Shown here: piece after piece, positions 2,623-3,740 of the stretch
How positions within the stretch are numbered: position 1 is the stretch's first letter
How the letters are laid out: each line of letters begins with the position of its first letter
Source: Candidatus Asgardarchaeum abyssi
GTDB lineage: Archaea; Asgardarchaeota; Asgardarchaeia; Asgardarchaeales; Asgardarchaeaceae
NCBI GenBank assembly: GCA_040225955.1
Contig: JBECUL010000061.1
Span: forward strand, 1-11,758
Reading direction: 5' to 3'
DNA: 11,758 nt
Made by a program: the position numbers and the translations under genes
Notes under the pieces: model-generated
Databases searched by the model: none
What the model saw: only the letters and a program-made list of their open reading frames with translations
What the model was told of the DNA's origin: nothing

Positions 2623-2755
2623 ATCGCATCACACATTATGCAACATTACTGCTAACTACTTAAAGTTAAAGCATTTTTATAATTCACGTAATAGCATTTT
2701 AAATTCGTTTCAGTTAATTTTTTTACTCTTGTTTCTCTATATCTATTGATGAAAG

Positions 2756-3547
2756 ATGTCTGGTGTCAAGGAAAGGATTAAAGATGTTCTTATGAAGAAA
2801 ATAGCGTTTCTAATACCTATTTTTCAATTTATACCAGCAATAGGGCCATGGTGCGGGATAATGAGCATCCCGGTGATCGCTTATTTTCTTATGTTAATCT
2901 CTATCTATTCTGATTATCCTGATATTTTAGCTCTCGAAATCTCCTACTTACTCAACCCTAGAACATTTATTTTTGAAAAAATTGTTGTACTTGTGGGGTT
3001 TGCTTTATTTGTGTACTCTGCAATCTACTTGCACAAACATAAAAACGGACTTACTACTACAGGTCCTTATAGTTATGTTAGACACCCTCAATATTTAGGT
3101 CTCATAATTATGACCCTTGGCTTTACTCTAATGTCTCTCAATACACCTCTAATTAGCATTGTCATTAGTGTATGGCTTATAGAGATATTAGCATATATCA
3201 TTTTGGGGTTCAGTGAATGTCCGCATTGGTGAGCGAACATCCACCTTGGGCCTCATCAGCCTCAGCTCCCTCTGGGTTCATGGGGAGCAAGTCATTGGTC
3301 TTGACCCCGTTCAGGGTAACCCCGCAAGCCCCACATCACAGCGTCCTTTCACACCGTAATGTCCTTTCGGTGCTTTACTCCCACCACATTCGGACACTGC
3401 CTCAATACTCACAAATGCTCACAAAATATTTAACTGTTTCGGAAGGCAAAAATCGAGGAATATCATCTGAGAAGCAAATTCGGAGATAAATATATACAGT
3501 ATATGAACTCTGTTCCATTTATGATCCCATTTCTAAGAAGAAAATAA
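2756..3547 (+). pseudogene. Isoprenylcysteine carboxyl methyltransferase / PEMT-like membrane protein interrupted by a 240-bp insertion
   Basis: LTTTGPYSYVRHPQYLG motif. The frame resumes at 3446 as AKIEEYHLRSKFGDKYIQYMNSVPFMIPFLRRK* (TAA 3545-3547), the typical EExxLxxxFGxxYxxYxxxVP tail. Removing 3206-3445 gives an intact 183-aa ORF (...AYIIL|AKIEE...). Confidence 0.92.
3206..3445 (-). mobile_element. Non-autonomous 240-bp insertion, probably an IS607 (TnpB-associated) derivative carrying an omega-RNA-like right end
   Basis: Boundaries are fixed by restoring the host ORF; GG at both junctions (3205-3206, 3445-3446); no terminal inverted repeats; subterminal CTCACAAA repeats (3408-3415, 3418-3425); TATA TTAAATAT on - (3433-3426); GC-rich hairpins; short minus-strand remnant MWGLRGYPERG resembling archaeal TnpB C-termini. 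Confidence 0.8.
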
Positions 3548-3617: not shown

Positions 3618-3740
3618 TGCTCCCCCATGAACCCGGAGGGGAGTTAAGGCTGATGCGACCCAAGTCCGTTGTGAAAGTAAGCATGAATGGAGGAACTTTT
3701 ACTCACTTTCCTCCATGGAAACTCACAACGGACAGACCCC
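3618..3740 (+). mobile_element. Second, truncated right end / omega-RNA-like remnant of a related element in the opposite orientation
   Basis: TGCTCCCCCATGAACCCGGAGGGGAGTTAAGGCTGATGCGACCCAAG (3618-3664) closely matches the reverse complement of 3245-3289. It is followed by a long hairpin (GTCCGTTGTGA 3664-3674 / TCACAACGGAC 3723-3733; ATGGAGGAA 3687-3695 / TTCCTCCAT 3708-3716) and ends in ACCCC, like the first element. Confidence 0.75.

Follow-up and report, generated by a model that had tools for sequence, protein, structure and literature searches.

A gene-less IS607 mini-element in an Asgard archaeon resembles a stand-alone TnpB guide-RNA cassette

Guide-RNA loci that travel without their own enzymes have been described in several settings. 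[quoted passage not shown] PATE-like minimal IS200/IS605 elements, which are gene-less with both ends kept, often encode omega-RNAs (10.1101/2023.03.14.532601), and these depend on the TnpB of other elements. With stand-alone omega-RNAs and PATEs, the concept of gene-less guide-RNA elements is already published; a guide RNA without its own enzymes is a known design and therefore no new kind of system.

For the IS607 family, described comparators are H. pylori IS607, IS1535 and ISC1926 (PMC6188088), ISXfa1 (10.1101/2023.08.09.552727), CboIStron (10.1101/2023.11.20.567912), and ISFba1 (PMC11061315). A pseudoknot is shared by all TnpB omega-RNAs and is required in CboIStron, in which TnpB cleavage serves transposon maintenance (10.1101/2023.11.20.567912). 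Retention by TnpB and the rule that the TAM equals the target have been shown for bacterial IS607 elements (10.1101/2023.11.20.567912, 10.1101/2023.08.09.552727). In Staphylothermus marinus, ~260-nt MITEs occur as 14 short gene-less copies that disrupt genes and are similar to DNA upstream of IS607-family ORFs (PMC2678158); they were described with inverted repeats and no RNA role, and are set beside the element reported here by description only. In a search that mostly covered literature outside subscription, no papers on guide-only IS607 elements or on a GCC/RuvC-III-Gln clade of TnpB were found.

Here we analysed the window, an 11,758-nt stretch that is contig C61 of a metagenome-assembled genome (MAG) of Candidatus Asgardarchaeum abyssi (2.6 Mb, 34% GC, 93% complete, 189 contigs), an Asgard archaeon from the phylum that also includes Baldrarchaeum yapensis. 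An earlier note on this DNA had claimed an exact 240-bp insert in an otherwise intact methyltransferase gene. Indeed, taking out positions 3206-3445 regained a 183-aa PEMT/ICMT ORF starting at 2756, from which an intact methyltransferase in the database (P0001) differs in four residues. Empty alleles, which the note had proposed to look for, were found in three other assemblies. The empty site ATCATTTTGGCAAAAATC, with a single GG in place of the GG noted at both junctions, is present in two independent contigs encoding the intact protein, L041 (JGI) and L042 (ENA), and in run X3 one contig passes directly from 3204 to 3445, with 240 positions missing and two ambiguous letters. Because of the GG core, the registers 3205-3444, 3206-3445, and 3207-3446 are equivalent. 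Excision of 243 bp would also keep the frame and is excluded by the empty alleles. A 90-aa ORF at 3217-3489 was dismissed as chance read-through of the insert, its sole Pfam match being below the cut-off. The GC content of the insert is 52% compared to 34% for the genome.

Neither TIRs nor a target-site duplication were found at the insert, so that it lacks what marks a classical TIR MITE. The previous statement that TIRs are absent holds in that none are seen, but the left-end repeat sits inverted in the loop of the last hairpin. A second IS607 family is represented in the window by a truncated right end (Table 1), which lacks P1 and the pseudoknot 5' strand and is followed by a decayed ORF remnant; it is present in both empty alleles and therefore older than the 240-bp insert.

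Table 1 Positions of the mini-element, its predicted RNA parts and neighbouring features in the window.
Feature	Position	Strand	Remarks
PEMT/ICMT-family methyltransferase gene, interrupted	2756..3547	+	183 aa intact, 158 aa with insert
Whole non-autonomous IS607-derived mini-element, both CC cores included	3205..3446	-	240 bp net insertion
Left junction G-CC	3445..3447	-	G is target, CC is crossover core; predicted TnpB TAM 5'-(H)GCC
Left end	3404..3447	-	91% identical to L062 positions 1-44
TATA-like box TTAAATA, presumed tnpA promoter	3427..3433	-	predicted start near 3403-3400
Two TTTGTGAG repeats 10 bp apart, likely TnpA-binding motifs (predicted)	3408..3425	-	
5' hairpin from tnpB zinc-finger codons	3359..3397	-	outer stem, 5x3 internal loop, 5-bp inner stem
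12-bp hairpin, from an 18-nt imperfect duplication	3333..3362	-	long (243-nt) subtype only
Stem P1, TGGGG with CCCTG	3314..3337	-	loop holds pseudoknot 5' strand GGGGTT (3323-3318)
Nested stems P2-P4, GA-rich internal loops between	3245..3307	-	covariation on alignment A2
Terminal 12-bp hairpin P5	3213..3244	-	loop holds inverted left-end repeat CTCAC
Right terminus AACCCC	3205..3210	-	pseudoknot 3' strand and CC core
Predicted guide, host flank	3185..3204	-	antisense to methyltransferase mRNA; after GCC only in empty allele
Truncated right end, second IS607 family	3620..3740	+	98% to tnpB tail on contig C97

In line with the earlier assignment to IS607 and its advice to seek a tnpA-tnpB parent common to both ends, two metagenome contigs (L062 and L051) were found to carry ~1.9-kb elements consisting of an IS607 transposase followed by a TnpB of ~417 codons. 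The parent TnpA matches the IS607 serine transposase NF033518 (E 1.7e-71). Both ends of the mini-element are shared with these parents, at 89-95% over 37-44 nt on the left and 86-88% over ~120 nt on the right, which, as had been suggested, corresponds to the 3' end of tnpB; a comparable element is present in B. yapensis. Mapped on L062, the mini-element corresponds to parent positions 1-44, 1592-1632, 1705-1716, and 1770-1890. The alignment of the zinc-finger block to 1592-1632 scores above all 300 shuffles, and the 12-nt third block (1705-1716) was placed by position, its own score not being significant. The mini-element is derived from a 1.9-kb parent via three internal deletions (~1,550, 70, and 53 bp), which spared every RNA helix, and was inserted at GCC through a 2-bp CC core without duplication. 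The former view of it as only a promoter plus an omega-RNA is right in that both protein genes are gone, and is refined as to its make-up, which is a four-block mosaic and no two-part fusion: the left end with the TATA-like box and presumed TnpA repeats, the zinc-finger hairpin, a stem arm, and the 120-nt right end.

We regard it as practically certain that the element is an IS607 mini-element. Together with its parents, it has in common with this family the lack of TIRs and target-site duplication, the 2-bp GG/CC core, phased end motifs, a serine TnpA with an N-terminal HTH, and an omega-RNA over the tnpB tail that forms a pseudoknot to its own 3' end. A PATE, that is an IS200/IS605 derivative, was ruled out, as the parent TnpA is a serine recombinase rather than Y1; while PATEs combine a Y1 TnpA with subterminal DNA hairpins, the mini-element has a 2-bp core and phased direct repeats.

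The BLASTN search for more copies that the earlier note had called for, together with a covariance model, showed that the full right-end core occurs at least 18 times in the genome; further fragments lie at contig ends. Sixteen of the 18 are near full length (85-97% identity) and some copies are truncated or degenerate; there are two subtypes, a long one of 243 nt and a short one of ~225 nt. No identical pairs exist among the copies, the closest differing by 3 bases (range 3-30). Read on the minus strand, the left junction is G-C-C throughout the 18 copies, with G-C-T in one of them; a G is found at -3 in 18/18 and at -4 in none, and the right terminus of complete copies is ACCCC. All copies examined use the GG/CC crossover core that had been claimed, and since the empty allele already has the junction G, this base belongs to the target, which reads G-CC, with the crossover at CC. 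This coding-strand CC core and GCC target differ from known IS607 elements, whose TAMs are G-rich (TGGG, GGG, AGGAG, GAGGG). Relative to host ORFs, six copies are antisense and three are sense, without clear bias.

A further mini copy is present in other strains at window positions 2651-2653 (L041:53-278, L042:1-52), where the window itself has an unoccupied GCT site. This copy is polymorphic between strains and has therefore moved since the strain split, or was precisely lost. Near-identical strains thereby show both filled and empty alleles at two sites that lie 550 bp from each other. A search of 60 further genomes from the same phylum yielded no full-length copy, and no viral contigs with the left end of the mini-element were detected. 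In L041, the left flank of the copy at 2651-2653 is that of the genome copy C3:12950, so that either two copies have been rearranged with each other or the assembly is chimeric here. In addition, contigs of runs X20 and X2 at window position 3201 show a mini copy apparently at a GCC within the omega-RNA region of a C96-type TnpB element.

The left end carries CTCACAAA repeats at 3408-3415 and 3418-3425 and a TATA-like box; these, as well as the GC-rich structured tail, lie where the earlier note had placed them. In nine parents, the box is at the same position (15), 37-41 nt ahead of the tnpA start codon. With the usual archaeal spacing, transcription from TTAAATA would begin around 3403-3400, immediately upstream of the first hairpin. 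A sigma-70 promoter scan was set aside as not applicable to archaea. Across parents, the repeat type follows the recognition helix of TnpA (GTGAG with KTIQRW, G(A/G)TAGG with RTIQKW), which fits the helically phased TnpA motifs described for IS607 family ends (PMC6188088). In RNA from run X20, available as assembled contigs whose strand and start are unreadable, one 174-nt contig matches 3201-3341 of another copy inside another element's tail; it was rejected as evidence of the element's own promoter because it runs into that tail.

Folding of the predicted transcript (3403-3205) gave a z of -4.2 for the minus strand compared to -0.2 for the plus strand, and this strand-specificity arises through G-U pairs. 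In an alignment of 22 right ends, 93% of cells in P2-P5 and the terminal pairing were paired and 16 of 33 pairs showed two-sided change, most of the covariation stemming from coding parents that are themselves related; none of 500 shuffles reached as high and slid controls remained at or below 53%. The GGGGTT in the P1 loop pairs with the last bases of the element, with compensatory types across 42 sequences: position 6 is T-A in 31 and C-G in 7 sequences, and position 7 shows four standard pair types. This pseudoknot was judged by positional anchors, an automatic search for the complement having been discarded as circular. P1 itself covaries (TGGGG/CCCTG versus TGTGG/CCACG). Its loop contains a variable insert of 0-90 nt in parents, and the 53-nt deletion of the mini-element lies wholly within it. 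The remaining 8 nt are comparable to the 7-9 nt that occur naturally in other parents. From their appearance, the GA-rich internal loops between P2-P4 presumably resemble K-turns. A search of Rfam gave no match for either the window or the parents.

In the parent clade, the zinc-finger codons fold into a two-stem hairpin with a 5x3 internal loop, a geometry that the mini-element retains. Its folding exceeded that of shuffles with synonymous codons in 48% of parent-clade tnpB genes compared to 9% of control windows, in a post hoc test for which the tested segment had been moved one codon earlier, the first segment, missing the outer 5' arm, having been negative. In Zestosphaera minis, the same hairpin fold is present with the outer stem rebuilt from new sequence. 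Seven of 11 gene-less mini types, with the 11 types coming from five or six genomes, keep a separate zinc-finger block with DNA deleted on both sides; these seven come from at least three parent lineages, the second family here (C54) included. The break lies within ~15 nt of the first Cys codon in minis keeping the block, with a clustering probability of ~6e-5 that assumes uniform, independent deletions and is indicative only. The 5' hairpin is absent in the other four types. Among 16 genomic copies, stem substitutions kept pairing in 11 cases and broke it in six (46% expected; p 0.10), and the variability of paired sites was only slightly lower, a weak signal of current selection on the stems. 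Overall, we consider it probable that the scaffold was kept through selection at the RNA level.

A plain MITE would require only DNA ends for TnpA, its RNA-like fold being inherited from the tnpB tail and its blocks reflecting deletion hot-spots at GC-rich hairpins. Such an origin would agree with the weak selection signal within the family, the missing 5' hairpin in some minis, the double role of the recombination end as pseudoknot 3' strand, and the one RNA run (contigs only), in which no transcript from the mini's own promoter was seen. However, ~190 nt are kept even though excision of CboIStron needs ~60 bp per end (10.1101/2023.11.20.567912), and a block that in the parent lies 260-300 bp away from the end survives two flanking deletions in several lineages, with compensatory rebuilding. 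Together with a fold that is strand-specific via G-U pairs, this makes a plain MITE unlikely in our view.

Instead, we favour the reading that the mini-element is a non-autonomous archaeal IS607 derivative acting as a stand-alone guide-RNA cassette, with a probability of about 0.65. Features of stand-alone omega-RNAs seen here are homology to the tnpB 3' end, no effector in cis, covarying stems with a 3'-end pseudoknot, a scaffold that ends at the element border, a variable flank as guide, and a predicted TAM at the left junction. Both are mobilised guide-RNA loci without nuclease or transposase; the mini-element differs by its IS607 serine-recombinase ends and its Asgard archaeon host, and its function in trans is a prediction. 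The proposal that the guide is taken from flanking DNA agrees with our placement, including its start at 3204.

Based on knowledge of the family, a cognate TnpA acting in trans would bind the phased repeats, excise the element precisely, and integrate it elsewhere. The insertion sites are many and polymorphic between strains, but no intact cognate helper was found in the MAG. Judging from its structure, the former tnpA promoter would give rise to a ~200-nt RNA folding as a TnpB omega-RNA and reading on into flanking DNA, which would serve as guide. TnpB from elsewhere would load this RNA and recognise GCC plus the flank. This combination is found only at the vacated site because the filled site has CCC; hence, the filled site would be spared. 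Precise excision would recreate GCC plus the flank as a target for TnpB, and targeting of the empty site could lead to the insert being retained or re-acquired, the same logic of an empty site targeted and a filled site spared as in ISXfa1 (10.1101/2023.08.09.552727). A second GCC-adjacent target for the guides was not found in the MAG, save one 10-nt seed match that may be due to chance. Present-day production of the RNA and its loading on TnpB appear slightly better than an even bet, and actual cleavage of the empty allele is a tentative proposal that we place somewhat below even odds.

The earlier note suggested that recombinase and nuclease would both be borrowed in trans. None of the refuting conditions that it had set on the DNA was observed; borrowing of the nuclease is uncertain, given a Gln at RuvC-III in the cognate TnpB clade. 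Among the assembled contigs of the 93%-complete MAG, no cognate tnpA or tnpB was found. A related IS607 family is present in pieces, with tnpA on C44 and tnpB tails on C97 and C135. The C44 TnpA, the only full-length IS607 TnpA in the MAG, is 67% identical and has the same recognition helix, but its catalytic Ser is replaced by Tyr. On C1, a third family is represented by an intact-looking TnpB (38% identical). In run X4, a contig contains the left end of the mini-element and then the start of tnpA. Two other gene-less IS607 minis were observed in this genome: C54:8036-8274 (minus strand), which is 239 bp long and carries the complete scaffold belonging to the C1 TnpB, a protein with the canonical DRD motif, and C53:479-652 (plus strand), with one family's left end and another's right end.

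The unassembled cognate helper and the mutated C44 TnpA would suit a stranded relic, a former working guide cassette now decaying in a lineage without active helper, as would copies that are 3-30 bases apart and in part truncated or degenerate. Against such decay speak the filled and empty alleles side by side in near-identical strains and the X4 contig leading into a tnpA start, and multicopy IS tend to collapse in a MAG of 189 contigs. We give a stranded relic little credence.

With regard to the nuclease, 41 of 48 related TnpBs read (D/N)RQ compared to DRD of ISDra2, the Asp of which we take to be the RuvC-III catalytic residue. The cognate TnpBs retain the RuvC-I Asp and RuvC-II Glu and have Gln at the RuvC-III Asp. 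Together with this Gln, the K-turn-like loops, the separate zinc-finger hairpin, and the lack of an Rfam match set the mini-element apart from known IS607 elements. Altered RuvC-III branches in archaea are listed in PMC10691335, many of them thought to be still active. It is conceivable that the RNA is made and loaded and that the cognate TnpB binds without cutting, e.g. steering re-integration or repressing the target locus. Replacement of the RuvC-III Asp by Gln in 41/48 proteins that keep the other two residues, and the listed archaeal branches, point in this direction; conserved rearrangements, however, often retain activity, as argued in PMC10691335, and the elements are still multicopy with a TAM-like target. 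A non-cutting TnpB thus seems rather improbable to us. A long shot is an undescribed bipartite omega-RNA, composed of the zinc-finger-codon hairpin and a K-turn core that may need L7Ae, with a GCC-TAM/RuvC-III-Gln TnpB that binds more than it cuts and guide-only copies as mobile DNA-binding or silencing cassettes. If this were true, archaeal IS607 minis would be a natural deletion scan of that RNA.

Returning to the favoured guide-RNA cassette, the repeated deletions predict, for a large, uncharacterised, and probably thermostable archaeal TnpB clade, where the omega-RNA has its 5' border and which of its parts are dispensable. The mini-element offers a ~200-nt minimal scaffold with a predicted GCC TAM, and thereby a direct test of whether RuvC-III-Gln TnpBs cut. 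In addition, it actively generates gene knock-outs by which strains of this Asgard archaeon differ.

Several further elements were observed. In B. yapensis (G006:C96), an 840-bp insert at L035:1719-2560 (minus strand; also in L043 and L061), with GATG at both junctions, interrupts a tnpB tail precisely where the 5' arm of P1 lies. The insert contains an ORF with LAGLIDADG-like and HTH parts (PF14528, E 3e-4, below the cut-off; one stop near the start) and may be a homing-endonuclease intron or an insert parasitising the omega-RNA. Its 3' end is also carried by the mini L155. The left part of two minis, L178 and L180 (G041, G058), seems to hold the reverse complement of their own terminal hairpin. 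Finally, large expansions of the present IS607/TnpB scaffold family were seen in other archaeal MAGs, with 40 matches in G081 and 22 each in G075 and G309.
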